From a bacterium (GTDB lineage: Bacteria > UBA10199 > 2-02-FULL-44-16 > JAAZCA01), in NCBI GenBank assembly GCA_021810905.1, contig JAJZQH010000003.1, positions 1,897 to 65,896 of the forward strand: a stretch of DNA of 64,000 nucleotides, in the 5' to 3' direction. Under the pieces are notes generated by a model, which made no database searches, was not told the DNA's origin, and saw nothing but the letters and a program-made list of their open reading frames with translations. Below are positions 17,619 through 50,153 of the stretch, piece by piece. The position numbers were made by a program, and so were the translations under genes. Each line of letters begins with the position of its first letter. Position 1 is the stretch's first letter.

Positions 17619-17712
17619 AATCCCTCCTGCACGTTATGCGGCGCCAGATAGCTCATGTCGCAACCATTGTCTAGGTCTGCTTTCAACGGAATCGCAAAAA
17701 AAACGGCCCAAA

Positions 17713-19077
17713 CTATCTCTGCTTCGCGAACATCACCGGCACCTGTATGCCGCCGCCGCTCACGTTCACCTTGAAGCCGCGGTTGGTGGCGCGCGTGATG
17801 AATCCGCCCACGTTGAAGTTGGTGAAGCGCGCACCGTCCCAGTCGTAGTGGACGTAGACGCCGACGTCTGCAATCACGCGCCTGGGTCTGGAGAGAAAAC
17901 CTGCCACGTCAATCGTATTGAGATCGATGCGATCCTGGAGAACCCAGTACTTGTGATCTTTATGAAGTATGCGCGCGAGCCGCGCTGGAATTTTTTTCCC
18001 AACAAATACGTGCTCGCCTCCCATGCCATCAGCGTACTTGAGCACGAGCCTTGAAGGACGATGGAGCGCTTCTTCTTCGTTGCCTCTCAACAATCTCGCA
18101 GGAACGATCGTATCCGCGAGCCTCTCCGCGCGCGCCTCGCCTATGAGGCGCCTGAGAATATTTTTATCCTCGAGCACGGTGAGGATCGTCTTTGGCGCTA
18201 CGAGTCCAGTGATGAACGGACTGTAGTGAGGTGTCTCGGACCGCACGAGGTCGCGGAAGAATCCCGGGGCCTCTTTCAAATCTTTGAGTTCGAAGCTGTA
18301 CGAGAGCTGGAATGCATCCGGAGGCCTTGTATTTGCTCCGATCTGCAGCTTGCCATCCCTGAGACGGACGCATTCGCGCGAGAGGAGTTTGCAATCTTCA
18401 TCGAGCTTCACCTTGAAGGCGGATGGAGAGACGAGCCGCATGTCGAGTCCGATCGCGCGCGCCTTTTTAAGGATCACCTCCTCTTCCCAGTTGTACAGCT
18501 CGTACTGGAAGCGCACGAAACGCCTGCCGAGCCTTCGCATGTTGCGCACTTCGCTCGCGGCGGTATCGAGGCATATCACCTCGCGCCTAAGTATCGGAAA
18601 GAGCTTGAGGATCGTCTCTTGAATGAACGACGAGCGGCCGGTTCCGTCGAAGCCGATATCGTTCACCTCCATGAGCTTCGGCGGATTATCGGGACTGGGC
18701 TTTCCCACCACCGCCATATCGAATCGCAGGCTGCCGATGATGCGCCGCTTTCTGTGCTTGAGCACGCCGAGCTCGCGGATCATATACTCCGAGATAGGCG
18801 TTGGCGGCAGGAGTTCCCTGATCTCGTCGGAAGGCAGCGAGAGAATCCGCATGAGCGATTCGGTGATATCGCGACACGTGCGCCTTATGACCGGAAGATA
18901 CGACGCGGGAAGGATGCGCGGGAGCGCGGAACAATCGTGATCGTTGATGCCGATGAGCCCGGAATCCGCGAACTCGTTCCACAGCTCGGCCTTGAGAGCT
19001 CTGAGGTCGCGCTCCCTGAAGAGCCTCGCGAGCTTCGATGGAAGGGCCTCGTGAAAATGACGGTGTCTTGGAAACAT
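17713..19077 (-). CDS. Circularly permuted ATP-grasp-like (glutathionylspermidine-synthase-like) protein
   Basis: ORF 17713..19077. An E-x-N type motif (KLMEVNDIGFDG) lies in the N-terminal third. A K/G-rich nucleotide-loop-like segment (LVLKYADGMGGEHVFVG) lies near the C-terminus, the reverse of classical ATP-grasp order. Assignment is by motif order only. Confidence 0.45.
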   Translation of the reverse strand: MFPRHRHFHEALPSKLARLFRERDLRALKAELWNEFADSGLIGINDHDCSALPRILPASYLPVIRRTCRDITESLMRILSLPSDEIRELLPPTPISEYMIRELGVLKHRKRRIIGSLRFDMAVVGKPSPDNPPKLMEVNDIGFDGTGRSSFIQETILKLFPILRREVICLDTAASEVRNMRRLGRRFVRFQYELYNWEEEVILKKARAIGLDMRLVSPSAFKVKLDEDCKLLSRECVRLRDGKLQIGANTRPPDAFQLSYSFELKDLKEAPGFFRDLVRSETPHYSPFITGLVAPKTILTVLEDKNILRRLIGEARAERLADTIVPARLLRGNEEEALHRPSRLVLKYADGMGGEHVFVGKKIPARLARILHKDHKYWVLQDRIDLNTIDVAGFLSRPRRVIADVGVYVHYDWDGARFTNFNVGGFITRATNRGFKVNVSGGGIQVPVMFAKQR

Positions 19078-19174
19078 GGTGCAACGTATATCTCAACGGC
19101 GGAAATTTTTCACGGATTATCATAATATCAAAACGGGGCGAGTCACCAAGGTCATCCGCCGAGCGATTGCCTCG

Positions 19175-21808
19175 CTACAGCAACTCTCTCAACACGGAAG
19201 CATATGGACCTTTCGCTATCTTTTCGAGGGCCGAATGCGAGAGCCGCCGGATCCTTTCTTTGCTCAAGCCGAGCATGCCTCCCACTTCCTCATGCGTATG
19301 ACCTGCGAGGTGGCATTGGAGCACTATGATTTTTTCCCTGTCGCTCAATCCCGATCCCTCAATCGCCATGTCGAGTTTCGTGATGGCATCGCTTCGAAGC
19401 GCGAGATGATCCGGCCCGACCTCTCCCAAATCGGTCACCCGGCCTTCCAACGTGAAATCACCATCTTCTTCGTCCAGCGGCGCAGAGAAGGAGACTTCCC
19501 GCCTTGCTGCCGCTCCCCGCTGTATCATCATTTTAAAGAGCGTCAACGAGAGCGAACGCTTGACATAGGTCTCAAAACTCGCGATCGAGGGATCATAGCG
19601 TTGCGCCAGCTTGTGGAGCTCAATCCTTCCTGCCTGGAGAAGCGCCCCAAAGCTCATGTTCGCCCCGCCAAACCTTGTCATCACGGAAGAAGCAATGCCC
19701 GCCATCAACGGCTCATAAAAAAAGATCAGGTGATCGAGTGCCTGCCGGTCGCCGGACTTGGCCATCCAGAGGAGAAGCATCTTCTCACGCTGATCCAGAA
19801 ATATTCCGCCGCCGCTCCTTCGCTTTGTCGTTATCGTCGAATAGACGTCCATCCCATAGTGCGAAAACGCCCAATCGATCATCCGCCCTTCACTTTCTGA
19901 ACCGCGCCACAGATTGCGGAGATAACCATAGAGGCCCATCAATCCCGAGTTCCTCTCTCCAACATGCGAGCGAAAATCTCCCTGCACGATGCCAGCTGCA
20001 TCCTTTGCGCCCGCTTCGCACATCATTCCAGCGAGATAAAAAGCAATGACCGAATCAGGCACGCGGCGCCAGCCCGAGAGCTTCCCGCCTCTCCGCTCAG
20101 CCAGACGAAGCTGCAGCGCAAATGGCATTTCTTCGGCTGCGGATACACCACAATAATCCAGGATTTTATCGACTACCACTCTCGAATCGTCAGGTGTCTT
20201 CCTCAGACTAAAATGCGTGTAGAGACCTTTCAGCGATTGACCGATCTCCGGGACGACCGTACTCTCCATCTCGCGACAGGAAACAAACCTAACGTGAGGC
20301 AGGCCATTGAGTTCCTGCACCCTCTCCATAAGGCGCAGAATCGTCGCGAGGGGAACCTTCTCCCACGGCCAATTCCTGTTATATCGCAAACAGAGGCACT
20401 GTTGTTCGTAGGAAAGATCTTCAAACCTCTCAACTCCGAGTTGATCGAGCATGAAATCCAGCGCAGAACCTCCGTAGCCTTCCGGAACCCTGAGCCAATA
20501 ATGTTCAAGCAAGCCTGAGAGCGTCGCGCCGAGCTCATCGAGCACGATCTCATTCAGTTTCTTACCTGGCATCGCCCTCAGATGCGGACATTTCAAACCG
20601 TTCTGCTCGGGTAAGAGTCCTCTGGCTATCTCCAGCAGTTTCACCTGCGTGGAAGCAGGCATTCTTTCCCATTTTATGAGTTCGCACTCTAGAAGACCCT
20701 TCAGCTGCACATCCCAGGGAAGGATCTCAAATGACGGAACGCCCACATCATCAAGCAGTGCATCGATTATTCTGCGGGCCTCTTTTCCCCGGTTGAGATA
20801 ATTATTATACAGTCCAATCAGTGTAGAACTGAGTTCTGGCATTTCGATGTCCCTGAAGTGGTCGAAAGTCAAAAACCTCGGATGCACAACGCCAGCCTCA
20901 TTCGCCAAGCGAAAAAGCAGATGTCGCTTAAGCTCCACGCTAATTTTATCCCAGTGGATACGCTGATAACGCAGCCCGATGAATCTCGCCTGTTCCGCCA
21001 GAGACAATTCCTCAAACCTCTGCACTCCTAAATGATCGAGCATGAAATCCACGATCCCGCCTGCACCGTGTTCGTCCGTCCACATCCGAGAATAATGTTT
21101 GTAAAGCCCTTGGCACTGCGCTTTCCATCCCGGCAACCTCATTTTGAAATGATCGAATCCCAGCAGGCGAGGATGTGGCAGGTTTTGAACCAGCGCCATC
21201 TGCTCGAGTATTCTGACCTGTGCACTGAGAGAGAGATGAGAGACATTCTTAAAGGGAGCGGAATCAACCCGCAACCGGTCGATCTCTGCCTGAATGCGCA
21301 ACTCCTCCATGGGATGATACGTGTATCGAAAGGAGCCGAGTCCGCGGGTCCCGAATTTCAGGCAGATATCAGCTATGGAGACGCTTGCCCCCTCGATCAG
21401 CGCGAGCGCCGATGCGACGAGCATCTTTGCGGGTTCGAAAGAGAGTATTCCCAGGATATGGGCGTCATGCGCGATAATGATCGCGTGAGAGGGAGAGTCA
21501 AAGCCGTGGAGTTTGAGCGCATCGCGCGTCATCGGGCTGCTCTCGTCGACAAAACGCATTGCTTGCCGATCGAGCGCCCTCCGGATCTCGGCCGGCGTCT
21601 GCCGGTGTGATCCATCTCGCTCCCCGTATTCATCCGCGGACGACGGCGTTGCAGAGTGCTCTTCGGTGTCAACGCCGCAGGATTCAAGCTCCTGGGATTC
21701 GGCGCAGGGCGGTATCTCGTCGAGGGCAGCTGTCTCTTCAGCAAGGACTAAGCTCCCCAACAGCTCCAGCTGCGAAGCGAGGTCTCCTGTAGATTGCAGC
21801 GCGGCCAT
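19175..21808 (-). CDS. Giant sigma-70-family protein: ~690-aa N-terminal extension with five ~98-aa tandem repeats plus C-terminal sigma2/sigma4 domains
   Basis: ORF 19175..21808 with AAGGGGAGG RBS. The C-terminal ~185 aa carry region 2-like (YDPSIASFETYVKRSL) and region 4 HTH-like (LSDREKIIVLQCHLAGHTHEEVGGMLGLSKERIRRLSHSALEKI) sequence. Repeat anchors GLYKHY, GLYNNY, GLLEHY, GLYTHF and GLYGYL sit at residues 234, 332, 432, 528 and 625. Confidence 0.75.
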   Translation of the reverse strand: MAALQSTGDLASQLELLGSLVLAEETAALDEIPPCAESQELESCGVDTEEHSATPSSADEYGERDGSHRQTPAEIRRALDRQAMRFVDESSPMTRDALKLHGFDSPSHAIIIAHDAHILGILSFEPAKMLVASALALIEGASVSIADICLKFGTRGLGSFRYTYHPMEELRIQAEIDRLRVDSAPFKNVSHLSLSAQVRILEQMALVQNLPHPRLLGFDHFKMRLPGWKAQCQGLYKHYSRMWTDEHGAGGIVDFMLDHLGVQRFEELSLAEQARFIGLRYQRIHWDKISVELKRHLLFRLANEAGVVHPRFLTFDHFRDIEMPELSSTLIGLYNNYLNRGKEARRIIDALLDDVGVPSFEILPWDVQLKGLLECELIKWERMPASTQVKLLEIARGLLPEQNGLKCPHLRAMPGKKLNEIVLDELGATLSGLLEHYWLRVPEGYGGSALDFMLDQLGVERFEDLSYEQQCLCLRYNRNWPWEKVPLATILRLMERVQELNGLPHVRFVSCREMESTVVPEIGQSLKGLYTHFSLRKTPDDSRVVVDKILDYCGVSAAEEMPFALQLRLAERRGGKLSGWRRVPDSVIAFYLAGMMCEAGAKDAAGIVQGDFRSHVGERNSGLMGLYGYLRNLWRGSESEGRMIDWAFSHYGMDVYSTITTKRRSGGGIFLDQREKMLLLWMAKSGDRQALDHLIFFYEPLMAGIASSVMTRFGGANMSFGALLQAGRIELHKLAQRYDPSIASFETYVKRSLSLTLFKMMIQRGAAARREVSFSAPLDEEDGDFTLEGRVTDLGEVGPDHLALRSDAITKLDMAIEGSGLSDREKIIVLQCHLAGHTHEEVGGMLGLSKERIRRLSHSALEKIAKGPYASVLRELL

Positions 21809-21882
21809 GCCTCCCCTTATACGACGCCGCGGAGATATTCAACTACCCATTAAAAATTTCCCGTGCGACCGGTAGGAATTTT

Positions 21883-23403
21883 TCACGGATTATCGGAGCG
21901 CCGTCGTCGGAAATCCTCGAGAAATTCCGCTAGAGGCATTTTGAATTCGCCTGATCCGCCGTTCGCCATCGAGTTCCGCCACATCAATCCAGCAAGGCGC
22001 TGCTGAACGCCCTCGTCCTCTATGACGAGCGCTTCCAGGAGCAGGTTGCGACCGCCTTGCGCGCAGTTCGAGAGAATGAATAAGAGCGGGGCATCATTGC
22101 GCATTTCAAGACGTTCCCGCATCTTTCGCAGATTTGCGAGCAGCGAATTGAAAACCTTCACCGCATTCTTGTTGCCGATGAAGACAATATCGCGGTTCAT
22201 CAAACCGCCCAATCCAGGGGTTTCGCCGGTTTTCAGCCAAAGCTCAAGAGAGCAGCGAAAGCCGTGCTCCCCATAGACCGTCGCAAATCCGGGTCGCAGC
22301 TCAAAGCCCGCGTACCTCATCATCTCGAAGAGCGCTACGTGGAACCCTGGTCTCCACGTATCGTCATCAAAGACGATGAGCATGGAACCGCCTTCCGAGA
22401 TCCGCCTTTCGCATCCGCACAGGAGCTCATGCATCCTGGTGAGGTACATACGATCGAATGTGTGCAGGGGATCCATCTCCCAGTCCATCGCCTCAGGGTG
22501 TACCCACGTCACCAGATCAAAGGTCTCAAGAGAGTCGCCATCATCCGCAAGGCCCTCAATAAATCCGGATTGCACCATCCCACATCCGTCTCCGGCACGG
22601 ACCTGATGAATCTTTCCCTCAGGATCGTCCCCAAGAGCGCACTGAAACTCTTTGAGATTGATCCTGGCGCCCTCCAATTTCCAACTCAAGACATCAAATC
22701 CGATAGTCTTCACGAGACCCGGAAGCGCCAGTCTCATCCCCAAATTCTCGTACCATTTCCCCGCGCCGACCGAAAGTACGGTGCGCGCCTCACACTTCTT
22801 TCCGACTTCCTGATAGAGGAGTATTTGCGCGGTATCGTAATACAATCTTGGGACGAGTTCGTCGGCGCCTCCGCCATTATAGAAATGTTGATAGAGCCTC
22901 AGCAGATCATACCGCTGCGCAGCGACAAGCTGTTCGACCGAGAAGTGATCTCTGCTTGCAGACAGTGCCCGCGGCACTGAGTCCCTCAACTCGATATTTT
23001 TTTGAATCCATTGCGGGAGTTCAATGAGATGGTTCCCCGCAGCTTGCTGCGGGGTTTCCGCCACCATCTCCCTTGAGGGGAGAGGGAAGGGTGAGGGTGA
23101 TCGTCGATGTTGCCGGTGATACCCCGCGGCTTGCCGCGGGGAGCATTCATTTTCCGGAGCCGACTGTTCGCGATCGCGCGTGACTGGCAGTCGCGGAGTA
23201 ACCGGCCCAGGCGCGCCACGATATTGATCGCCAACCGCCACATATTCCGACGCCACGTCATTCAGGCATATACCCTGACGGGAATCGGGCAGCGGTATAA
23301 TATCATCGTCGCAGACCACGAACACTTCCTCTGCACCGGATTCCTCTGCAGGCAGCCCGTCTGCCGCGGCCATTACATCGAGATTTAACGGTTTTACGGT
23401 CAT
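21883..23403 (-). CDS. Hypothetical protein with class-I SAM-methyltransferase-like core; the ORF reads through a MITE copy
   Basis: ORF 21883..23403. Good RBS (AGGAGA) before ATG 23403. Rossmann MTase-like motif series VLSVGAGKW / IGFDV / FDLVTWVHP / ISEGGSMLIVF. Residues ENECSPRQAAGYHRQH...AAGNHLIEL are encoded by the repeat at 23021-23151. Confidence 0.5.
   Translation of the reverse strand: MTVKPLNLDVMAAADGLPAEESGAEEVFVVCDDDIIPLPDSRQGICLNDVASEYVAVGDQYRGAPGPVTPRLPVTRDREQSAPENECSPRQAAGYHRQHRRSPSPFPLPSREMVAETPQQAAGNHLIELPQWIQKNIELRDSVPRALSASRDHFSVEQLVAAQRYDLLRLYQHFYNGGGADELVPRLYYDTAQILLYQEVGKKCEARTVLSVGAGKWYENLGMRLALPGLVKTIGFDVLSWKLEGARINLKEFQCALGDDPEGKIHQVRAGDGCGMVQSGFIEGLADDGDSLETFDLVTWVHPEAMDWEMDPLHTFDRMYLTRMHELLCGCERRISEGGSMLIVFDDDTWRPGFHVALFEMMRYAGFELRPGFATVYGEHGFRCSLELWLKTGETPGLGGLMNRDIVFIGNKNAVKVFNSLLANLRKMRERLEMRNDAPLLFILSNCAQGGRNLLLEALVIEDEGVQQRLAGLMWRNSMANGGSGEFKMPLAEFLEDFRRRRSDNP
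23021..23151 (-). mobile_element. MITE/REP-like three-hairpin element, copy a (inverted, inside ORF 21883..23403)
   Basis: The reverse complement aligns end to end with copies at 46752, 52424 and 55828 (aatgaatgctccccgcggcaagccgcgggg...ccccgcagcaagctgcgggg..catctcattga). Confidence 0.8.
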
Positions 23404-23471
23404 ATATCTCCTGCCCTGACGACATGGACGTTATCGCAGAATTCCTGAAAAAGTTGCTCGATATTCGCACC

Positions 23472-23631
23472 CAAATCCGACACTTGAATTATCACTCAAA
23501 TCCTCCCTCCCTTGATGGGAGGGAGTTTGAGGGAGGGTGACCATGAAGACTTTCGTCACCCAAGGAATGAGTACCACCCTCTCCCTAACCCTCTCCCATC
23601 AAGGGAGAGGGAATTTTTTGTGTCGGATTTC
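23472..23631. repeat. Palindromic hairpin-cluster element bounded by an 11-bp inverted repeat
   Basis: AAATCCGACAC (23472-23482) pairs with GTGTCGGATTT (23621-23631). Internal hairpins are CTCCCTCCC-ttgat-GGGAGGGAG, GGGTGAC..GTCACCC and CCCTCTCCC-atcaa-GGGAGAGGG. It lies between divergent genes. Confidence 0.6.
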
Positions 23632-23695
23632 AGCGCAAAAAAACCCGCAACTTCTTCCCGGCTGCAGCCGATACACGCCGTAATCGAGGAATTCA

Positions 23696-25210
23696 ATGAG
23701 CACTACATTCACTCCAGGTATCGGCGGTTTTCCCGGCGTGATTTCGCCGCAGGAAGGCGTGGATAGCGTCATCCTAACCTCTACGGGCGATTATGACTTC
23801 GCCTGCGAACGCCCGGCGGAGGATGCTGCCGGCGGAAATCTCGGACTCATCGCCATCGACCACGCGCTCGAAGATGCCGGATTTGATCCGGAAAAGATCA
23901 GCACCATCTATCGCGGGAAAAAACGCAGGCCTCATCTCGATACTGAACGTACGCGGATCGTGGAAGGAATGCGCGCATTGGGCGCCGGAGAAAAAGGCGC
24001 GGTCATAGGCATCTCCACCACGACCGACGAATATTTCAGATTTGCCCCGCTCGCAAAACTCCTCAGAATGGCGTTTCCGGACGCCACCCTCATCGCGGGC
24101 GGGGCGCACTTCGTGCGCGAGCGCATCGGCGGATTCGCGGACCCGGTAGAGACTGCGCTCATGATGGGGCTGGTTGACGCCGTTGTGGTGGGACACGCGC
24201 AGCCGTTCGTAGACCTGGTCGTCAAGCACGGAGGCAGAATCGAAGAGGTCGATGCGCCTGGCTTCTATCGGCTCGATCCTGTTTCAAAGCGCGTCACGGG
24301 TCGCGGCAAGGGGAAATTTCCCGACCTGAACAAACTCACTCTTCTCTACGATCCGGTGTCGATGGGCATCCGCACGATGCTCGCCGACGGCTGCAGAAAC
24401 GGCTGCAATTTCTGCACGGTGGCGGGCAGGCCGGTCGCGCTCTTCGATCCCGAGATCGTCGTCAGGGACTTAAGCGCCGCACTACTTGAGCATCAGGACT
24501 TTCGCATCTCGCTCTATGATTCCAATCCGCTCGAACCCGCGCTTCGGAATTTCTATCGCAGCGTCTTTCTGGCGCTTGATGAAACAAACCAGTCCCGAAA
24601 ATTCGCCTATATCGATCCTGCCACGCTGGCCCACGATTTTCTGGAATCTCTGAACACCATATCGTTCGGCACGATCTGGTCCTTCAACGCGGGCCGCGAC
24701 GCGGTAACCGAGAAGCAGGCACGCGCGATCGGCACGAGGTATAAAGGAAAATATAAGGACCAGCGGATGCTCGACGCGGAGAAGAAGGCGCTGATCGAAT
24801 TCATCGATGCCATGAAGATGCTGAAAAAGCTCTATCCCGAAGAGCCGCCGTTCGGCCTGATGCTCTCCTATATCGTGACGCCGTTTGAAACCAGGCAGTC
24901 GGCGATGGCGATGTACGAAGAGATGCGCGAGTTCCTGGCGCTGGCCGACAAATCGATCGTGTTCCGCTTCGCCGTGCATGCCCTCAGGCCCTATCCGGGA
25001 ACGACCCTCAGAAATAAATATTCGAGTGTCATCGACATGGAAGAATTCAATTTCCGCCTCGACCTGGGCGACAGGATCTCGCCGTGGAAGAAGGGCGCGG
25101 CCCCAGCCCTCGCCTTTCATCGTGCAGTGACGATGATTCCCCCGGTCAACGATCAGACAGACTACCTCAAGGCCTTCAAGCGCGCCATTAACACTCATCT
25201 TCCCCGGTGA
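23696..25210 (+). CDS. Radical SAM protein with N-terminal Rossmann/B12-binding-like domain (paralog 1)
   Basis: ORF 23696..25210 with GAGGAA RBS. CRNGCNFC (CxxxCxxC). Long blocks are shared with 31766..33244 (GGAHFVRERIGGFADPVE, GHAQPFVDLVVKH, AGRDAVTE, LSYIVTPF, PYPGT, ISPWK, C-terminal LPR). Confidence 0.7.
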   Translation: MSTTFTPGIGGFPGVISPQEGVDSVILTSTGDYDFACERPAEDAAGGNLGLIAIDHALEDAGFDPEKISTIYRGKKRRPHLDTERTRIVEGMRALGAGEKGAVIGISTTTDEYFRFAPLAKLLRMAFPDATLIAGGAHFVRERIGGFADPVETALMMGLVDAVVVGHAQPFVDLVVKHGGRIEEVDAPGFYRLDPVSKRVTGRGKGKFPDLNKLTLLYDPVSMGIRTMLADGCRNGCNFCTVAGRPVALFDPEIVVRDLSAALLEHQDFRISLYDSNPLEPALRNFYRSVFLALDETNQSRKFAYIDPATLAHDFLESLNTISFGTIWSFNAGRDAVTEKQARAIGTRYKGKYKDQRMLDAEKKALIEFIDAMKMLKKLYPEEPPFGLMLSYIVTPFETRQSAMAMYEEMREFLALADKSIVFRFAVHALRPYPGTTLRNKYSSVIDMEEFNFRLDLGDRISPWKKGAAPALAFHRAVTMIPPVNDQTDYLKAFKRAINTHLPR

Positions 25211-37553: not shown

Positions 37554-39203
37554 TCACTTTGCGGATGCCACGGCATGGTTGACTATGGCCTGCGCCTCCT
37601 GCTGGATGCGGCGCAGGTGTTCCTCTCCGCGGAAGCTCTCGGCGTAGATCTTGTAGATATTTTCAGTGCCCGACGGACGAGCCGCGAACCACCCGCTCTC
37701 GGCTATCACCTTGAGCCCGCCTATCGGCGCATCGTTGCCCGGCGCGTTCGTGAGGATCTTCTCTATCTTCTCGCCAGCCAGTTCGCCGAGCTTCACCTCA
37801 CGCGGAGAAAGCTTCTTGAGCAGGGCCTTCTGCGCGGGCGTGGCGGGTGCGTCGATGCGGTCGTAGAGCGGTTCGCCGAACTCGCGCGTGAGCTCGCGAT
37901 AGAGCTCGCCGGGGTCGCGCCCCTCTTTCGCCGTCATCTCAGCAGCGAGCAGCGCGGGGATCATTCCGTCCTTGTCAGTGCTCCACGCCCCGCCGTCCAT
38001 TCTCAAAAACGACGCGCCGGCGCTCTCCTCGCCGCCGAAGCCGAGCGAGCCGCCCTGCAGCCCGTCCACGAACCACTTGAAGCCGACCGGAGTCTCGTAG
38101 AGTTTGCGGCCGACCTTTGCAGTCACGCGGTCGATCATGCTGCTCGACACCACGGTCTTGCCCACTGCGGCGTCCTTTCGCCAATTGGGTCTGTTCCTGA
38201 AGAGGTATGAGACCATCACCGCGAGGTATTGGTTCGGCTGCATGAGGCCCGCGCTGCGCGTGACTATGCCGTGCCTGTCGTGATCGGTGTCGCATGCGAA
38301 TGCGATGGCGAAGCGATCCTTGAGTCCGATGAGCCTCTGCATCGTATAGGGAGACGAGGGATCCATGCGGATCTTGCCGTCCCAGTCGACTGTCATGAAA
38401 CCGAACGTCGGGTCCACCACTTCGCTTACGACCGTGAGATCGATCTTGTATCGCTCCGCGATCTGCGCCCAGTAGTGCACGCCCGCGCCGCCAAGCGGGT
38501 CCACTCCCATCTTGATGCCTGCAGCGCGAATTGCCTCCATGTCGATTACGTTTGCGAGGTCATTAGTATATGCGTCTATGTAATCGTACCTGTGCGTGGT
38601 TGCCGCGTGAAGGGACTTCTCGAACGTAATTCTCTTCACTTCCGCAAGCCCGTTTCCAAGAATCTCGTTCGCCTTTGCCTCGATCCACCCGGTAATTGTC
38701 GGATCCGCTGGTCCACCATTCGGCGGATTGTACTTGAAGCCGCCATCAGAGGGAGGATTGTGCGATGGAGTGATCACAATGCCGTCCGCAAGTCCCGTAG
38801 TGCGGCCGCGGTTGTATGTCAGTATGGCGTGGGAGATGGCGGGCGTCGGCGTGTATTCGTCCTTGTCGGAGACCATCGTCTCCACGCCGTTTGCCGCCAG
38901 CACCTCCAGCGCGGTTGCAAACGCGGGCGCCGAGAGAGCGTGCGTATCGACTCCGATGTAGAGCGGGCCGCCGATGTCGTTTTTCCTGCGATACATGCAG
39001 ATCGCCTGCGTGACCGCGAGGATGTGAGACTCGTTGAAGGATCTCTCGAACGACGATCCGCGATGACCGGAGGTCCCGAACAAAACCCTCTGCGCCGCAA
39101 TCTGCGGGTCGGGCTTCTCGGTGTAATATGCAGTGATGAGCTTCGGGATATCCACGAGCATCGACTGCGAAACCGGTTTTCCTGCGAGAGGGCTGACGTT
39201 CAT
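37554..39203 (-). CDS. pgm: Phosphoglucomutase (alpha-D-glucose phosphate-specific)
   Basis: ORF 37554..39215. ATG 39203 is preferred (GGAG upstream). Active-site TPSHNPP, GVDPLGGA, ACDTDHDRHG and GGEESAG. Confidence 0.92.
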   Translation of the reverse strand: MNVSPLAGKPVSQSMLVDIPKLITAYYTEKPDPQIAAQRVLFGTSGHRGSSFERSFNESHILAVTQAICMYRRKNDIGGPLYIGVDTHALSAPAFATALEVLAANGVETMVSDKDEYTPTPAISHAILTYNRGRTTGLADGIVITPSHNPPSDGGFKYNPPNGGPADPTITGWIEAKANEILGNGLAEVKRITFEKSLHAATTHRYDYIDAYTNDLANVIDMEAIRAAGIKMGVDPLGGAGVHYWAQIAERYKIDLTVVSEVVDPTFGFMTVDWDGKIRMDPSSPYTMQRLIGLKDRFAIAFACDTDHDRHGIVTRSAGLMQPNQYLAVMVSYLFRNRPNWRKDAAVGKTVVSSSMIDRVTAKVGRKLYETPVGFKWFVDGLQGGSLGFGGEESAGASFLRMDGGAWSTDKDGMIPALLAAEMTAKEGRDPGELYRELTREFGEPLYDRIDAPATPAQKALLKKLSPREVKLGELAGEKIEKILTNAPGNDAPIGGLKVIAESGWFAARPSGTENIYKIYAESFRGEEHLRRIQQEAQAIVNHAVASAK

Positions 39204-39287
39204 TTTTGGCTCCATTATGTACGGGGACCTCTAAGAACCGTCCAGATGCAAGGCGCCCGACTGAGGCCGGCCGAGTCAGACAAGGCG

Positions 39288-39313
39288 GGAAAACTTCTGC
39301 CAGATGGCAGAAG
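39288..39313 (-). terminator. Rho-independent terminator after the thaumatin-like gene
   Basis: Stem CTTCTGCCA (39294-39302) / TGGCAGAAG (39305-39313). The minus strand continues with TTTT. Confidence 0.6.
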
Positions 39314-39402
39314 GCAAACCGCCGCGTCAGTTATCAATCGCCCGCCGCAGGCCGTGCCGATGGAGGGCAACGCAGCAGATGGGCGGTTATTAGAGGTTCC
39401 CC

Positions 39403-40374
39403 TTAAGGACAGAAGGTCATGAGGAACTGCGTATTGCCGGCGCAATTGTGCAGCCCCACGACATCATCATATGAATACGCATACACGCCGCCGGTGCACA
39501 TGCTGTGTATGGCTGCCACGTATTTTGTCGCAGCCACGGGACCCGCGCGGCAGGCGCCCGGGTCGATTGGAGGAGTCGGGCAGCAGTACATCACGGCAGC
39601 GTCGCCCTGCTCGGAGAGGCCCTCGCCGTTGTATCCTGTGTTGTTGGGCCAGTTGAGTTTCTTGCACGGAGAATAGCACCCAAGCGCGGTGTCGGGACTT
39701 GCCGCGTCGAGGACCCTCAGATCCTCGTTGTTATACTCGGGATGCACATCTACCTGTCCCTGGCTTAAGTTCTCGTCGGTCGGGCAGCCGCTTAGATTGA
39801 GGTTTGTGCAGTCGATGGTATTGCAGGAAGAGCAATCCGCGTTGATGCAGGTTGAACCTCCTCCGCCGACGATGGTGACTTTGTAAGGCAAGGAATAACC
39901 GTCGACAGCGCTCGTGTCCCAAGAGGTGATCGGCGGGAGCTTCTGTGCCGGCGCAGAGGGATTCACCGCGCACTGCGTGGGATCGGCATTGGTGCAACCC
40001 CACGTGGCCTCAAATTTGGAATCAATGGGCGGGGCACAGCCTGCTGCCGGGCACGGGTCCGAGCTCTGACCCAACGAGCAGTTCTGGCTGTTGGCATCGC
40101 AACCTGTCTTGGGCCAGAAGCGCGTCGACGCAAGCCCTATATCAGGAATGTTGTAATCCACGTATCCGCCCTTGGCCAATTGAGTGACGGCGGCAGTTCC
40201 GGTGGGCATGTTCGATTGCTGGATCCAGATCGTATAAGAGCAGTTGTTGACGATTCGGAAGAGCGCGGTCTGCGTGGGAAGTCCGCCGCCGCCCCCGCCG
40301 CTGCCGCTTCCTCCTCCACAGCCGAAGCAGAACGCCAATGCGATTATAAGAGACAATGGGCGAAAAATTCTCAT
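39403..40374 (-). CDS. Thaumatin-like (PR-5 family) lipoprotein
   Basis: ORF 39403..40374. Lipobox AFCFGCGGG. Collinear with plant thaumatin by eye: FRIVNNCSYTIW, RFWPKTGC, PPIDSKFEATW, DTSAVDGYSLPYKV, MYCCP, AYSYDD...FLMTFCP*. Confidence 0.8.
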   Translation of the reverse strand: MRIFRPLSLIIALAFCFGCGGGSGSGGGGGGLPTQTALFRIVNNCSYTIWIQQSNMPTGTAAVTQLAKGGYVDYNIPDIGLASTRFWPKTGCDANSQNCSLGQSSDPCPAAGCAPPIDSKFEATWGCTNADPTQCAVNPSAPAQKLPPITSWDTSAVDGYSLPYKVTIVGGGGSTCINADCSSCNTIDCTNLNLSGCPTDENLSQGQVDVHPEYNNEDLRVLDAASPDTALGCYSPCKKLNWPNNTGYNGEGLSEQGDAAVMYCCPTPPIDPGACRAGPVAATKYVAAIHSMCTGGVYAYSYDDVVGLHNCAGNTQFLMTFCP

Positions 40375-40481
40375 GGTAATATCCCCCTGAGCGGTTCGAC
40401 ACTGTAGAATATGATCGGGGACTATAGACTAATAATTATAGAAATCATCAGGAAAATGACTGGCGAAGTTACACAGGTTCT

Positions 40482-41147
40482 TCAACTCGGCTTGCTGTGG
40501 CGCACATCCCTCCCCTTTGCCGTGAATATCGCGAGTTCCGCGATATTGGTGGAGTGATCCGCCATTCGTTCGAGATAGCGGACGATCGAAGTCGCCGGAA
40601 ACAGCCGGTTCAGATTTTCAGGCTCCTTTTCTGCGCGCTCCAGCAATTCCTTCACGTAATACTCGGTGAGATCGTCCACCACGTCGTCGTTATTGAGCAC
40701 TCCCTCGGCCTTTGCCGCGTTGGAGTTGACGAACGCGTCGATGCTGTCCTTGAGCATCATCTGCACATTGTTCGACATCTGAGTGAGATCGATAGGTGAG
40801 TCCCCGTGCTTCACGATATCTATCACGCGGCTCGCCGTGTTGACGGCTAGGTCCCCCACGCGCTCCAGATCCGTCACTATCTTTAGGCCGCGTGTGATAA
40901 AGCGCAGGTCCCACGCCGCGGGCTGGTAGCGCGCAAGCAGCTCTATGCACTGTTCGTCGATGGATACCTCCAGCGCGTTGACCGCATGATCGCTCTCGAT
41001 TATCTGCTGCGCGAGGGCCGTATCGCGCGAGGCCAGGGCCTTCATGCAATCCGCAACCATCGCCTCAACTTTGGATCCCATGAGCAGGATCTGCTGCTTG
41101 AGCGCCTCGATTGCCTCGTCAAAGTGACGATCGATGTGGTGTTCCAT
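40482..41147 (-). CDS. phoU: Phosphate signalling regulator PhoU
   Basis: ORF 40482..41147. Two PhoU repeats (ESDHAVNALEVSIDEQC.., DLERVGDLAVN; DDVVDDL.., YLERMADHSTNIAE). Confidence 0.92.
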   Translation of the reverse strand: MEHHIDRHFDEAIEALKQQILLMGSKVEAMVADCMKALASRDTALAQQIIESDHAVNALEVSIDEQCIELLARYQPAAWDLRFITRGLKIVTDLERVGDLAVNTASRVIDIVKHGDSPIDLTQMSNNVQMMLKDSIDAFVNSNAAKAEGVLNNDDVVDDLTEYYVKELLERAEKEPENLNRLFPATSIVRYLERMADHSTNIAELAIFTAKGRDVRHSKPS

Positions 41148-41155
41148 GATTCCTC

Positions 41156-41908
41156 CTATCCATAGCGTCCGGATATATAGTCTTCAGTGCGTTCGTCGCG
41201 CGGCGCGGTGAAGAGCTGCGTGGTCTTTCCGAATTCTATGAGTTCGCCGAGCAGCATAAAACCGCAGTCCTCGGAGACGCGCGCGGCCTGCTGCATGTTG
41301 TGCGTAACGATGACGATCGTGTATTCGCTCCTGAGGTCCTGCATCAGCTCTTCGATGTGCGCGGTGGCTATAGGGTCGAGCGCCGAGCACGGCTCGTCCA
41401 TGAGCAGGATCTCGGGCTTTGTGGCGAGCGCCCTCGCGATGCAGAGGCGCTGCTGCTGCTCGCCCGAGAGGGAGAGCGCGCCCGTCTTGAGCTTGTCCTT
41501 GAGATCCTCCCACAGCCCCACTCCCGTGAGGCATTTCTCGACTGTCTCCTCCACCTGCGACCTGTTGCCGATACCGTGGATTCTCATCCCGTAAGCGATG
41601 TTCTCGAAAATGTTCAGCGGAAACGGATTCGGGCGCTGGAAGACCATGCCTACGGTCCTGCGCAACTTGAGGATATCCTCATCGAGCAGCGGGCGACCCA
41701 GCACGCTCACGTCTCCCGTGATGCGCACGCCGGGGATGAGGTCGTTCATGCGGTTGAATACGCGAAGCAAAGTGGACTTGCCGCAACCCGAAGGTCCGAT
41801 GATCGAGGTGATGCGTTTGGGCGCAATGGAGACGGACACGGACTTCAGCGCATGGAAGTCGCCATAGAACAAGTTCAGGTCTGTGCAGGTTATGGAATCC
41901 ATCCTCAT
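41156..41908 (-). CDS. pstB: Phosphate ABC transporter ATP-binding protein PstB (canonical)
   Basis: ORF 41156..41908. [10 protein letters not shown]-loop [33 protein letters not shown] and H-loop [10 protein letters not shown]. Confidence 0.93.
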
Positions 41909-46698: not shown

Positions 46699-46726
46699 TG
46701 TTCGGAAATCGTTAGAAAATTGTTAA
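46699..46726 (-). promoter_or_regulatory. Pho-box-like triple direct repeat upstream of the porin gene
   Basis: The minus strand reads TTAACA-atttt-CTAACG-atttc-CGAACA, nearly superimposable on the pstS site. Confidence 0.55.
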
Positions 46727-48161: not shown

Positions 48162-50009
48162 TCATTTGGCCGCGCTCAACCCGCGCTCCATATCGGGCAG
48201 CATTTTCTTCATCCTGTTCGCCATGAAAAAGGCCTTAAAGAACATCCCCCAGCTGACCAATGAATTCGCAAACAGATTCCACTGCCTCACGATTCTCTCC
48301 GCAACGTTCAAGCCCTCCGTCTCCATCTCTTCGGCGGCCCTGGTATTCTTGGCTATGGCATGCCCGATCTTGATGCTCTCCCACAACTTGCCCATGAATC
48401 CCCTGGAGTCCTTTGACTCAGCCCTTTTTTTACGGGTCGATCTGATCGCCTGCCAAATTTGTCCCATGTTGCGGCCTGCCAGGAATCTCCTTATCGCAGG
48501 GCCTTCTTTCACCATATACTGCAGGAAGAGCAATCCGCCGTACGTTGAAGTGAACAACAGCGCGTGGGGTTCTGTGGCTGGATAGACTGAAACTGCAGTG
48601 CCGATGAGAGATGCGGCTGCGCCTATGCCCAGCGCGTTGACTATATGTTCGGTCGAAAGCTGTCTTGTCCTCTCCGCCACGGTCATTCTGTGCGTTTTTC
48701 CATTCTTCACTTCTACGGTCCCGTTCGGATCGAGACCGCGCAGCCCCCAGTGCTCTTTTAAGTTTCTGATCGTCTTGCCGGCAATCACTCCAAAGCCAAT
48801 GCTCGGAGGGAGCAATGCGAGGAGAAGACCGCCTATGACCAGCGTCTTTGGGACAACAAACGCGTAGTTGGCCCACCGATAAAGCGCCTCTGCGTTCGTG
48901 GATAAGGCGGCAGCGTTGTGTGCCGTCGGCTGAAGTTTTTCCATGGCATCGCTTACATAGGCAGAGTTCTCACGCAGAAAGGAGAAGCGTTCGGGCGCAA
49001 ACAGTGCGGCCCCGAGTATGGCGCTCGAGGCGATGGCCACGGCAAACTTCGGCACACGGGCAATCGCGTTGCCGAGCGAAAAGAGCGCGGCGTTGACGTC
49101 AGGGGTGTTGATCTGTCTGTCCTCTCCCTTTTCCACGGCTGACACGTATTTCTGTTGCTCTGCCTCGAGCATGGATAACCCGCTCTTCGCCTTTGCCCAC
49201 CATCCCAGGATCGACAGCGCAAATGCCCCATTTACCGCAATCGTTCCCGCAATATAACCCGCTTCCCACATGGTTGTGCCCCTGCCGAACAATTGCGCTG
49301 CGCCTATAGCCAGAAGCGTCGCACCTGAACAGACCTTGTCGGCCGTAAACGCCACGTTTCCGAGCAGGTCATAATAGTTTCGGAGATGGAGCTTCGTCCG
49401 CTCATCTTCGCTCAACCTTGTATCTCTGGCGAATGCAGCGGTCGCTGCAATATTGCCTCCGATAGCAAGCAGGTATCGTGCAAGCTTGCCTCCCATATAA
49501 ACATTCGAGTATCCGGCTGATTCGATGTCGATCTGAACCCTCTCAGAAGGGCTGAGGGCATGCCCCATGTGATCGCCGACGAGAAAACGCATCGGGATCG
49601 ACATGACATTTCCGGTATCCTGAGTATGGAGCGGTTCATCCGTGTAGGTGCCGGCCGCAACAAGCGCGCCGCTTATTGCCTCAGCCCTTGCATAATCGCC
49701 GACTGCCGCGGCGGCGCTGGGGACTCCCTGCGTCGACAATCTCCACAATGCCTTTCCGTCGATTCCGCCGTCATGCTGAGATCCTTCCGCAACTGTGGAT
49801 ACAGGGCCAGAGACACCCGACGGAGCAAAGGTTGATGACTGATTTGAAATCGCAGCAGCATCTACTGAGGAAGCGGCCGCAGGGGAAAGGCGGTCATCAA
49901 CGATATCGTCCGCAGTCAGCTCTTCCGTTTCATCAAAAAGAGGCTCCGCAGAAATTGCCGAGCCAAACTGCTCTGCTGAAGCCGTAAGGGAAGCCTGCAC
50001 GCTTACCAT
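48162..50009 (-). CDS. 615-aa hypothetical multi-pass membrane protein with acidic disordered N-terminus
   Basis: ORF 48162..50009 with AAAGGA RBS. No signal peptide and no recognisable family. Several long hydrophobic segments (e.g. GATLLAIGAAQLF, GYIAGTIAVNGAFALSILGWW, TLVIGGLLLALLPPSIGFGVIAG). Confidence 0.6.
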   Translation of the reverse strand: MVSVQASLTASAEQFGSAISAEPLFDETEELTADDIVDDRLSPAAASSVDAAAISNQSSTFAPSGVSGPVSTVAEGSQHDGGIDGKALWRLSTQGVPSAAAAVGDYARAEAISGALVAAGTYTDEPLHTQDTGNVMSIPMRFLVGDHMGHALSPSERVQIDIESAGYSNVYMGGKLARYLLAIGGNIAATAAFARDTRLSEDERTKLHLRNYYDLLGNVAFTADKVCSGATLLAIGAAQLFGRGTTMWEAGYIAGTIAVNGAFALSILGWWAKAKSGLSMLEAEQQKYVSAVEKGEDRQINTPDVNAALFSLGNAIARVPKFAVAIASSAILGAALFAPERFSFLRENSAYVSDAMEKLQPTAHNAAALSTNAEALYRWANYAFVVPKTLVIGGLLLALLPPSIGFGVIAGKTIRNLKEHWGLRGLDPNGTVEVKNGKTHRMTVAERTRQLSTEHIVNALGIGAAASLIGTAVSVYPATEPHALLFTSTYGGLLFLQYMVKEGPAIRRFLAGRNMGQIWQAIRSTRKKRAESKDSRGFMGKLWESIKIGHAIAKNTRAAEEMETEGLNVAERIVRQWNLFANSLVSWGMFFKAFFMANRMKKMLPDMERGLSAAK

Positions 50010-50153
50010 CGCTGCGTCCTTTCGAAAAACAAGTTGCGCTCGTGACCATGCTTTCTGTAATAATGCTCATGACCTCTCTCACCTGGCGCATTAAGCGCAG
50101 ACGTGCTTTAGGAAGTGATTCGCAATCTGTTAATTATTGGTTAGGAGCGCCGC

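Follow-up and report, generated by a model that had tools for sequence, protein, structure and literature searches.

The gene described here lies on the minus strand of the window (the whole stretch of DNA that was analysed, 64 kb in length), 107 nt after phoU on the same strand and directly upstream of the phosphoglucomutase gene pgm, and thus sits between pgm and the Pho cluster as the initial annotation had placed it. The open reading frame starts with ATG, stops with TAA at 39403..39405 and encodes 323 aa, and its ends are identical to those of the NCBI gene call on contig DAHVYM010000026.1 (GCA_027327785.1). The locus carries the following features:

39403..40374, minus strand: complete gene for a predicted thaumatin-like lipoprotein precursor, 323 aa (ORF list, sequence, Pfam 55.9 bits)
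39406..40266, minus strand: thaumatin-fold domain, residues 37-323, with 20 Cys and five insertions relative to classical thaumatin-like proteins (TLPs)
40282..40317, minus strand: Gly/Ser tether, residues 20-31 (GGGSGSGGGGGG), predicted to be disordered (translation, pLDDT)
40318..40320, minus strand: codon of Cys19, the predicted lipidated first mature residue (column Cys in 89% of 46 aligned homologues)
40321..40374, minus strand: predicted signal peptide, residues 1-18 (MRIFRPLSLIIALAFCFG; translation)
40382..40387, minus strand: Shine-Dalgarno-like GGGGGA, 7 nt 5′ of the ATG (direct sequence reading)
40435..40440, minus strand: perfect TATAAT hexamer, a possible -10 box (sequence)
39290..39313, minus strand: terminator-like hairpin CUUCUGCC-AUCU-GGCAGAAG followed by UUUU (RNA fold of 39216..39402, sequence)

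The TATAAT hexamer sits inside the AT-rich 107-nt spacer between phoU and the gene, where no -35 partner was found, and it argues only weakly for a promoter because the promoter scan gave no full sigma-70 site. The same spacer yielded a fold z of 0.16 and no terminator-like site. Downstream, the assertion that the gene has its own terminator stands in part: an 8-bp stem folds about 90 nt past the stop codon and is followed by just four U, whereas the consensus terminator scan returned no minus-strand terminator, the hairpin going unflagged because its U run is shorter than five. The GC content of the gene (0.59) equals that of the neighbouring genes. An Rfam search of the whole window and of 39100-40600 gave no matches, and the family HMM run against six-frame ORFs found no second copy within the 64 kb.

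The encoded protein (hereafter the query) matched the Pfam family PF00314 (Thaumatin; InterPro IPR001938) with 55.9 bits against a cutoff of 27.4 (E = 6e-15), and the match spans positions 1-209 of the 209 in the profile and residues 43-323 of the query. Alignment by hhalign of the family profile with osmotin, NP24 and thaumatin gave a probability of 98.6% (E = 5e-16, 200 aligned columns), and sequence searches of the PDB matched exclusively TLPs; with these two profile results, the collinearity with thaumatin and osmotin proposed in the initial annotation is far above chance. The predicted structure (pLDDT 89.1, pTM 0.85) has the thaumatin fold, a β-sandwich core with disulfide-rich lobes forming a cleft, and its best Foldseek matches were Mal d 2, Pru av 2, a Puccinia TLP, thaumatin, osmotin and an Amycolatopsis TLP. 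The five insertions relative to classical TLPs lie at about residues 126-145, 171-185, 204-231, 244-261 and 268-277. An NCBIfam search with the query gave no significant match. A regular expression of the classical thaumatin signature PROSITE PS00316, which we take to be G-x-[GF]-x-C-x-T-[GA]-D-C-x(1,2)-[GQ]-x(2,3)-C, matched osmotin and thaumatin and was absent from the query and from 120 of 120 homologues; the query therefore represents a divergent branch, the signature being diagnostic of classical TLPs and not a definition of the family. The gene is an intact, true member of the thaumatin family (PF00314; GH64-TLP superfamily) and thereby a candidate for CAZy GH152, a family membership that the profile search supports over the full length.

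The query belongs to a divergent "long-type" TLP subfamily, whose members are about 80 residues longer and which occurs widely among bacteria. When clustered at 50% identity, the subfamily falls into at least 247 clusters; it is present in at least 64 GTDB bacterial species, and PF00314 was matched by 83 of the 101 representatives (from 144) that the Pfam scan took in. Bacterial homologues from several phyla are 41-73% identical to the query, some of them already named 'thaumatin family protein' by NCBI, and the lineages include the predatory or eukaryote-associated Myxococcota, Bdellovibrionales, Legionella and a Rickettsiales endosymbiont. These counts and names, together with the Legionella report of 2014 and PDB entry 7P22, contradict the earlier view that bacterial members are uncommon. 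The long-type insertions and shifted cysteines are common to all bacterial members. Haptophyte and dinoflagellate algae also have the subfamily, examples being Chrysochromulina tobinii, with a protein named 'thaumatin domain family protein', and Biecheleria, with a transcript. A rough neighbour-joining (NJ) tree placed the query in a clade with about 109 leaves, in which all labels are bacterial and lipoboxes occur in about 80%, and a haptophyte clade of 14 leaves lay apart from it. To our knowledge, no member of the long-type bacterial subfamily has been characterised.

The dense cysteine pattern noted initially is largely retained in the alignment: of the 16 Cys columns of osmotin (eight disulfides in large TLPs), 14 are matched by a Cys of the query. 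In place of osmotin C66 and C162 the query has the nearby family-specific C113 and C275, so that two disulfide partners are shifted. Its four further Cys are C127 and C135, a pair found throughout the family, and C176 and C181, a pair specific to the query; ten disulfide pairs are predicted in all. The REDDD residues are regarded as the putative catalytic cleft of GH152 TLPs (PMC11800479), and osmotin R44, E84, D97, D102 and D185 were used as the reference. Query R85, D153, D158 and D303/D304 align unambiguously with this cleft; all 46 aligned family members have R85, D158, D303 and D304, and the D153 column holds Asp or Asn across the family. The similarity to TLPs is therefore not limited to cysteine spacing, since it includes the fold and these cleft residues. 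For osmotin E84, MAFFT pairs K120 of the query, and MAFFT and hhalign disagree beside the first insertion, where hhalign is unreliable. The motif K120-x-E122-x-T124 is invariant across the family and lies on a predicted strand, and we infer that E122 is the cleft glutamate equivalent to osmotin E84 because it is invariant on the topologically matching strand. The suggested acidic cleft has support in the thaumatin fold, the Arg and Asp residues and the acidic pI of the mature protein (4.33), but its Glu is not fixable by sequence.

The N-terminus has an n-region with R2 and R5, a hydrophobic core and a lipobox-like C-F-G ahead of Cys19, whose +2 residue is Gly. A-L-A at residues 12-14 could in principle suit signal peptidase I, which argues against the lipoprotein reading. 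Under a strict lipobox rule of the PROSITE PS51257 type (charged n-region, hydrophobic core and [LIVMFWSTAG](2)-[LIVMFYSTAGCQ]-[AGS]-C within the first ~35 residues), the query fits with Gly at -1 and Phe at -2 and fails solely at -3, because this residue is Cys. Among 120 homologues, 77 passed the strict PS51257-like rule and 86 a relaxed one. Tether residues 20-28 have pLDDT values below 50, and comparable linkers occur in most close homologues; Big_5 Ig-like domains, a feature typically found in surface proteins, also occur in close relatives. Since OEP, RND and porin genes are present on the same contig, the organism is taken to be a diderm. The lipoprotein signal and Gly-rich tether described at first are therefore supported by the family-wide Cys and the Gly/Ser linker, although the lipobox departs from the canonical form in its Cys at -3 and Phe at -2, and the protein is probably lipid-anchored to the bacterial envelope via Cys19.

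The glucan-binding role suggested in the initial annotation gains indirect support from the domain fusions and neighbouring genes of homologues. The accessory domains found across the 101 subfamily representatives are CBM56, CBM6/35, GH16, SKN1, X8, Carb_bind and ricin-type lectins. CBM6 is fused to the TLP in Hahella and others, CBM56 in Cellvibrio, Microbulbifer and Cellvibrionaceae, and a single Microbulbifer ORF combines CBM56, GH16 and TLP; a CBM6-GH16 gene lies directly downstream of the TLP gene in five loci, and GH16 genes lie near it in Kofleriaceae and Myxococcales loci. Because relatives are fused to CBM56, CBM6 or GH16 or adjoin GH16 genes, a β-1,3-glucan target is indicated. These glucan-related fusions and neighbours were observed in relatives; the query itself has no CBM and its gene no glycoside-hydrolase neighbour. 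TLPs constitute family GH152, in which β-1,3- and β-1,3-1,4-glucanase activity was reported for one fungal and one insect member (PMC11800479).

Our main reading, to which we assign a probability of about 0.6, is that the query is an exported, disulfide-rich, tethered long-type TLP whose cleft binds, and may cut, β-1,3-glucan; family membership, fold and residue conservation are established for it, and its lipidation, localization, substrate and catalysis are predicted. The precursor would be exported via Sec, Cys19 would be lipidated and the chain cleaved ahead of it by the Lgt/LspA/Lnt pathway, and the outer membrane would be the probable destination, since Cys19 is followed by Gly at +2 and the organism has outer-membrane genes. 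The mature protein would then hang from the outer membrane on its 12-residue Gly/Ser tether, and the acidic domain (pI 4.3) would present a cleft of R85, E122, D153, D158 and D303/D304. This cleft would most likely bind β-1,3-glucan, either fungal or oomycete wall glucan, laminarin/chrysolaminarin, curdlan or paramylon, and may also cut it as an endo-β-1,3-glucanase with E122 and D158 as the catalytic pair; the protein would thus serve to capture nutrients or to attack organisms with glucan walls. Against the glucanase reading, numerous plant TLPs whose REDDD is complete are glucan binders that show no measurable hydrolysis.

The protein might instead be a non-catalytic glucan binder, a surface lectin, adhesin or sensor that tethers the cell to β-glucan particles or prey or passes chains on to other enzymes without hydrolysing them itself, an alternative that we hold possible but doubtful. 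One point in its favour is that binding of β-1,3-glucan by TLPs is better documented than their enzymatic activity (Trudel et al., 1998, as cited in PMC13251364); another is the Asn that occupies the D153 column in 34 of the 46 members. Likewise, the GH16 fused to the Microbulbifer TLP is itself catalytic and a GH16 gene follows the TLP gene in the five loci above, so the TLP could be an accessory binding module. Conversely, those CBM56-TLP and CBM6-TLP proteins in which no other catalytic domain occurs are built as is usual for a CBM joined to a catalytic module, E122, D158 and D303/D304 are invariant, and two GH152 members are proven glucanases (PMC11800479).

The genes around the query bear on two further explanations. 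All ORFs within ±8 kb of the homologue were clustered for 64 GTDB loci plus the window (65 loci), and no conserved operon partner emerged across them save generic ABC ATPases; neither was a conserved partner gene found beside the relatives that are 59-73% identical, and the small genes that follow the three closest homologues bear no relation to one another. A periplasm-facing lipoprotein that remodels the cell's own glucans (osmoregulated periplasmic glucans or a curdlan-like exopolysaccharide) would accord with the gene's position directly upstream of phosphoglucomutase, the source of glucose-1-phosphate for glucan synthesis, with the pgm found near the homologue in the alphaproteobacterial MAG L033, and with the frequency of a periplasm-facing orientation among lipoproteins. 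This explanation is improbable, as the window and L033 are the only 2 of the 65 loci with pgm adjacency, no glucan synthase or opg genes appear within the 64-kb window, and the modules to which family members are fused are characteristic of secreted enzymes for the breakdown of foreign polysaccharide.

That the protein acts as an antifungal toxin like osmotin, being released (for instance on outer-membrane vesicles) and then permeabilising target membranes, is very unlikely, even though many plant PR-5 proteins are antifungal (PMC3048497) and the family is enriched in the predatory or eukaryote-associated lineages listed above. A lipid-anchored protein on a short tether is out of reach of a target membrane unless released, and the glucan-module fusions indicate a carbohydrate target and not a membrane. 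Membrane-active osmotins are basic, whereas the query is acidic.

Comparably small is the chance that the gene is a Pho-regulon member co-transcribed with pstSCAB-phoU and serving phosphate scavenging. The gene shares the strand of phoU at the 107-nt distance with no convincing terminator between, and the entire cluster from the 615-aa gene through abcF is co-oriented. Yet the Pho-box-like motif of this genome, TAAC-N7-TAAC-N7-GAA, precedes pstS, the porin gene and the 615-aa gene and is missing ahead of the thaumatin-like gene, phoU adjacency is confined to the window (0 of 64 related loci, and likewise absent beside the closest homologues), and the thaumatin fold has no known phosphate chemistry. 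A Pho box of the gene's own was accordingly rejected.

The initial annotation had raised horizontal transfer from eukaryotes. A recent transfer of this kind, be the donor a plant, a fungus or some other eukaryote, was rejected as extremely improbable despite the family being best known in eukaryotes and having algal members within the long-type subfamily, because the query is 18-28% identical to solved eukaryotic TLPs against 41-73% to bacterial homologues, its NJ clade holds bacterial labels only with haptophytes elsewhere, its closest relatives are bacterial predicted lipoproteins, its GC content matches that of its neighbours, and all bacterial members have the subfamily insertions and shifted cysteines.

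Thaumatin-like proteins are textbook plant defence proteins. The gene described here belongs to a large, mostly unannotated bacterial TLP branch that has its own structural additions and, usually, a predicted lipid anchor, and whose hosts are predatory, intracellular and polysaccharide-degrading bacteria. If the β-1,3-glucan reading is true, this branch would be a pool of β-1,3-glucan-directed candidates for GH152, whose characterised members are two and eukaryotic, and it would be of some help in annotating CAZymes and in explaining how bacteria handle fungal and algal glucans. No concept is overturned, because bacterial TLPs are already present in Legionella genomics, the PDB and NCBI annotation. 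As a tentative extension, which we would put forward as a possibility at most, the lipobox clade that includes this gene (~110 sequences) might consist of surface-tethered GH152-type β-1,3-glucanases or adhesins that allow uncultured 'deltaproteobacterial' and Bdellovibrio-like lineages to hold on to or digest eukaryotes that have glucan walls or glucan stores (fungi, oomycetes, algae), and the long-type branch might be primarily bacterial and have been exchanged with haptophyte and dinoflagellate algae.

Compared with plant PR-5 proteins and TLPs (osmotin 1PCV, Jun a 3 7P20, Mal d 2 3ZS3, thaumatin 1THV), the query is collinear from the 'xxIxNxCxYTxW' strand to the C-terminal 'YSYxxDD...TFCP' and has in common with them the 14 of 16 Cys columns, the Arg and three Asp of REDDD and an acidic character. 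It differs in an identity of merely 18-28%, the five insertions (~80 residues), the shifted C113/C275, the extra C127/C135 and C176/C181 and the missing classical signature, and it carries a predicted lipoprotein signal and a Gly/Ser tether in place of their plain secretory signal. Among GH152 members with an intact REDDD cleft, Lentinula edodes TLG1 and Bemisia tabaci Bta13961 hydrolyse β-1,3- or β-1,3-1,4-glucans (PMC11800479). Their Pfam domain and, with E122 as the putative Glu, their cleft residues are also found in the query, a likeness drawn via the family, whereas both are eukaryotic and of classical size and the query is long-type and bacterial. The GH64 laminaripentaose-producing β-1,3-glucanases (3GD9, 5H9Y, 7VTK, 5H4E) are 13-19% identical to the query and have an additional domain, and the GH64 profile (Pfam PF16483) matched it insignificantly (E = 0.095, 12.4 bits vs a cutoff of 27); GH64 membership was rejected on these grounds.

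Among bacterial proteins, the Amycolatopsis rifamycinica TLP (PDB 7P22) is of classical size (about 220 residues), and it belongs to a different bacterial branch, because it is without the long-type insertions and was not picked up when PDB sequences were searched with the family profile at E <= 1e-3; a search of the accessible literature on 7P22 or bacterial TLP biochemistry found no paper. The Legionella thaumatin-motif proteins lpg1328, llo0044, lmi1344 and lha2013 were reported as 'eukaryotic-like' motifs (Gomez-Valero et al., 2014, PMC4256840). Long-type members with 37-42% identity are present in L. impletisoli, in L. yabuuchiae and on a plasmid of Legionella sp. D16C41; these proteins are 514-726 aa in length, are without a lipobox and end in a long C-terminal extension for which Pfam gave no match. 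Finally, the haptophyte protein KOO23864.1 of Chrysochromulina tobinii, in whose 90% cluster P0098 also sits, belongs to the same long-type subfamily with about 45% identity and insertions in common with the query, and the haptophyte TLPs, in their separate 14-leaf clade, are anchored by an N-terminal cytoplasmic tail and a transmembrane helix instead of a lipobox.

The ORF list and the sequence place the gene for a thaumatin-like protein (TLP), hereafter the query, as follows:

39403..40374, minus strand: TLP gene, 323 codons, ATG to TAA

A ribosome-binding site, GGGGGA, lies 7 nt 5′ of the start codon. An NCBI record calls the identical protein, with the same ends, on the MAG GCA_027327785.1 (contig DAHVYM010000026.1), and the query protein is present on a second, independent short contig too; a family HMM search found no second TLP copy in the window. 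Against PF00314 (Pfam Thaumatin; cutoff 27.4 bits) the query scored 55.9 bits (E = 6e-15), its residues 43-323 covering the entire profile (1-209), and a PDB sequence search returned TLPs as the only matches, whether queried with the single sequence or the family profile. With tobacco osmotin and thaumatin I (sequences identical to 1PCV and 1THV) as references, profile-profile comparison of 46 homologues with osmotin, NP24 and thaumatin gave 98.6% probability (E = 5e-16) over 200 aligned columns spanning osmotin residues 2-205. Furthermore, the AlphaFold model built from the family alignment was confident (pLDDT 89.1, pTM 0.85), poor prediction being confined to signal peptide, tether and a single loop, and Foldseek retrieved more than 25 TLP structures with it (E = 1e-9 to 4e-15). 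These results indicated that the likeness to thaumatins extends over profile and fold and is not limited to cysteine spacing. The family assignment made in the initial annotation is thus upheld, with a probability of about 0.95 that this is a bona fide thaumatin-family gene.

In the E-INS-i alignment the query is collinear with thaumatin/osmotin from FRIVNNCSYTIW to MTFCP and has Cys at 14 of the 16 osmotin Cys columns, so that the end-to-end collinearity and the retained cysteine pattern described earlier were both reproduced. Osmotin C66 and C162 are lost in the query; because the family-specific C113 and C275 lie close by, two disulfides have probably been re-routed relative to osmotin. Compared with classical TLPs, the query has five insertions, together ~80 residues, the first of which encloses an extra, family-wide pair, C127/C135; a further pair, C176/C181, is almost exclusive to the query. 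With 20 Cys besides Cys19, the mature protein, which is acidic (pI 4.33), would be expected to form ten disulfides. The classical thaumatin signature pattern of PROSITE was found in osmotin and thaumatin but not in the query or in any of 120 homologues, and the query belongs to a divergent "long-type" TLP branch.

In the acidic cleft (REDDD: osmotin R44, E84, D97, D102 and D185), R44, D97, D102 and D184/D185 mapped to query R85, D153, D158 and D303/D304. R85, D158, D303 and D304 are constant in all 46 family members; at position 153, 34 of them have Asn and 12 have Asp. The cleft Glu is the weak point, MAFFT setting E84 against K120 and hhalign being unreliable in the same stretch. An invariant K120-x-E122-x-T124 forms the model strand 120-125 just before the SWDTSAVDGY strand, its TLP counterpart being "TLAEYAL", and this placement suggests that E122 may be the equivalent of osmotin E84.

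Residues 1-19 comprise MRIFRPLSLIIALAFCFG followed by Cys19 (|C), and residues 20-31 are GGGSGSGGGGGG, with pLDDT <50 at 20-28. The lipoprotein signal read in the initial annotation stood in the family comparison but not under a strict rule: of 46 aligned members, 89% have Cys at the position of Cys19, and a rough neighbour-joining (NJ) tree places the query inside a clade of ~109 sequences, ~80% with a lipobox, whereas the query's own lipobox fails a strict PS51257-type rule, solely through Cys at -3. This rule was passed by 77 of 120 homologues, and P0002, a homologous protein 73% identical to the query, has a textbook ...LIFSG|CGGGG. From these sequence features, lipid anchoring of the query appears likely. 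Since OEP, RND and porin O/P proteins are encoded on the same contig, the host is a diderm; under the E. coli Lol rule, Gly at +2 directs lipoproteins to the outer membrane, where the query would be sorted if that rule applies. In some close relatives a Big_5 Ig-like domain lies between anchor and TLP domain, which fits surface display. An extra ~40-residue Cys-rich module (consensus near CSVSxxCSSQCSGTGYSxDGGTNCFSDSAC) sits between lipobox and TLP domain at residues ~25-70 of some close homologues (P0016, P0039, P0048 and P0052), with no Pfam match in P0016.

Next, the distribution of the family was surveyed. A word-indexed search yielded 209 clusters at 90% identity, and exhaustive HMMER over 1.84 billion representatives yielded 922 matches at E <= 1e-3, of which 480 reached E <= 1e-10 and 247 reached E <= 1e-30. 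Three peptide patterns, scanned against the GTDB species representatives, located 64 loci. The hosts include Myxococcota (three Nannocystis species, Kofleriaceae, Haliangiales and others), Legionella (L. impletisoli, L. yabuuchiae and one Legionella plasmid), the genera Cellvibrio, Hahella, Microbulbifer and Marinicella, the species Inquilinus limosus, members of Acidobacteriota and Bdellovibrionales, and a Rickettsiales endosymbiont of the euglenid Peranema; the query's nearest relatives among them were from MAGs labelled Deltaproteobacteria or Pseudomonadota (51-59% identity). The Nannocystis protein is already named "thaumatin family protein" at NCBI, PDB 7P22 is a bacterial TLP, and a 2014 paper (PMC4256840) reported thaumatin motifs in Legionella, lpg1328 among others. 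These counts and records contradict the earlier view that bacterial members are uncommon.

The Legionella-group TLPs (650-726 aa; locus L020, 7968-10145, plus strand, and loci L012, L015, L023, L029 and L034) have the domain N-terminally, followed by a ~380-residue extension with no Pfam match, and are without a lipobox. Locus L061 (7860-10397, plus strand) encodes an 845-aa long-type TLP of the Rickettsiales endosymbiont of Peranema trichophorum; euglenids store paramylon, a beta-1,3-glucan.

The long-type branch is not confined to bacteria. A separate 14-leaf clade, with an N-terminal tail and transmembrane anchor in place of the lipobox, holds proteins of Chrysochromulina tobinii and C. parva, a dinoflagellate (Biecheleria) transcript provides one member of 1009 aa, and a few representatives carry the eukaryote-type modules X8, CBM1, PAN and Somatomedin B; therefore, bacteria-algae exchange occurred somewhere in this branch. 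These algae store beta-1,3-glucan. Algal (haptophyte/dinoflagellate) long-type TLPs are represented by 283-1338 of locus L069, 229-1311 of locus L070 and the proteins P0098, P0274 and P0159. For the query gene itself, horizontal transfer from eukaryotes, raised in the initial annotation, was rejected as a recent event: the query nests among bacterial lipoproteins in the NJ tree (unbootstrapped, with only two classical TLPs as outgroup and hence no deep direction), its identity to solved eukaryotic TLPs is only 18-28%, and the gene is compositionally native, its GC of 0.59 equalling that of the neighbouring genes.

The TLP gene lies 107 nt after phoU, where a co-oriented Pho cluster ends (615-aa gene, alkaline phosphatase, porin O/P, pstS, pstC, pstA, two pstB and phoU), and is followed by pgm and an ABC-F gene, confirming its position between pgm and the Pho cluster. 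The features of this region are:

39216-39402, minus strand: TLP-pgm spacer, 187 nt
41156-41908, minus strand: pstB-type ABC ATPase gene, 250 aa
41905-42669, minus strand: pstB-type ABC ATPase gene, 254 aa
45387-45411, minus strand: Pho-box-like motif upstream of pstS
46701-46725, minus strand: Pho-box-like motif upstream of the porin O/P gene
48162-50009, minus strand: 615-aa gene, first of the cluster
50119-50143, minus strand: Pho-box-like motif upstream of the 615-aa gene

The motif, TAAC-N7-TAAC-N7-GAA, is a direct repeat of three units with an 11-bp period and has three exact matches versus 0.2 expected by chance; the phoA-like gene has a variant, TTAC-N7-TTAC, and the core is unlike CTGTCAT, the E. 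coli consensus. It is missing upstream of the TLP gene, and the phoU-TLP-pgm arrangement was absent in all related loci examined; the gene's neighbourhood in the window is therefore uninformative about function. The 615-aa gene, which had no Pfam match, is a candidate for an uncharacterised phosphate-starvation protein. Two tandem pstB-type genes, overlapping by 4 nt, lie between pstA and phoU, versus the usual single pstB. Elsewhere, large ORFs (410, 454, 877, 506 and 504 aa) occupy both strands of 16386-25210, adjoining a kdpABC-kdpD cluster, and their sole Pfam match was Sigma70_r4, to a segment of the 877-aa protein (19175-21808).

The spacer after phoU is AT-rich and weakly structured (z = 0.16) with one lone TATAAT, and read-through from phoU into the TLP gene is conceivable. 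The gene may have its own terminator, as proposed, but the candidate is weak: an 8-bp hairpin with a UUUU tail, ~90 nt beyond the stop codon and within the TLP-pgm spacer. The promoter and terminator scan found nothing on the relevant minus strand. Folding of the TLP-pgm spacer gave -90.6 kcal/mol (z = -5.6), a value equalled by 0 of 200 shuffles, and Rfam returned no match; beyond the terminator-like hairpin, the spacer could hold a pgm leader or a structured RNA of another kind.

Across 101 representatives, accessory domains were overwhelmingly beta-glucan-directed. CBM6 is fused to the TLP in Hahella, an unclassified gammaproteobacterium and a Cellvibrionaceae MAG, and CBM56, a beta-1,3-glucan-binding module (PMC13251364), in Cellvibrio, Microbulbifer litoralis and another Cellvibrionaceae MAG; one 823-aa ORF of Microbulbifer hainanensis (locus L058, 6453-8924, plus strand) unites CBM56, GH16 and TLP. 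A CBM6-GH16 gene lies immediately 3′ in five loci (L037, L038, L039, L040 and L058), directly following a CBM-TLP gene in Hahella, Cellvibrio and Microbulbifer, and GH16 genes occur within a few kb at one Cellvibrionaceae, one Kofleriaceae and one Myxococcales locus.

TLPs form CAZy family GH152, from which a Lentinula beta-1,3-glucanase and a whitefly beta-1,3-1,4-glucanase have been characterised and in which REDDD is considered the catalytic cleft (PMC11800479); GH152 is counted among the beta-1,3-glucanase families (PMC10637969). The fusions and neighbours of its relatives, together with the conservation of the acidic cleft and the relationship of GH152 to GH64, best support a function in which the query would bind beta-1,3-glucan on the cell envelope and perhaps hydrolyse it; this ligand is somewhat more likely than not, and hydrolytic activity somewhat less likely than not. 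Collectively, the query is no rarity but a new member of a known, experimentally neglected bacterial TLP branch.
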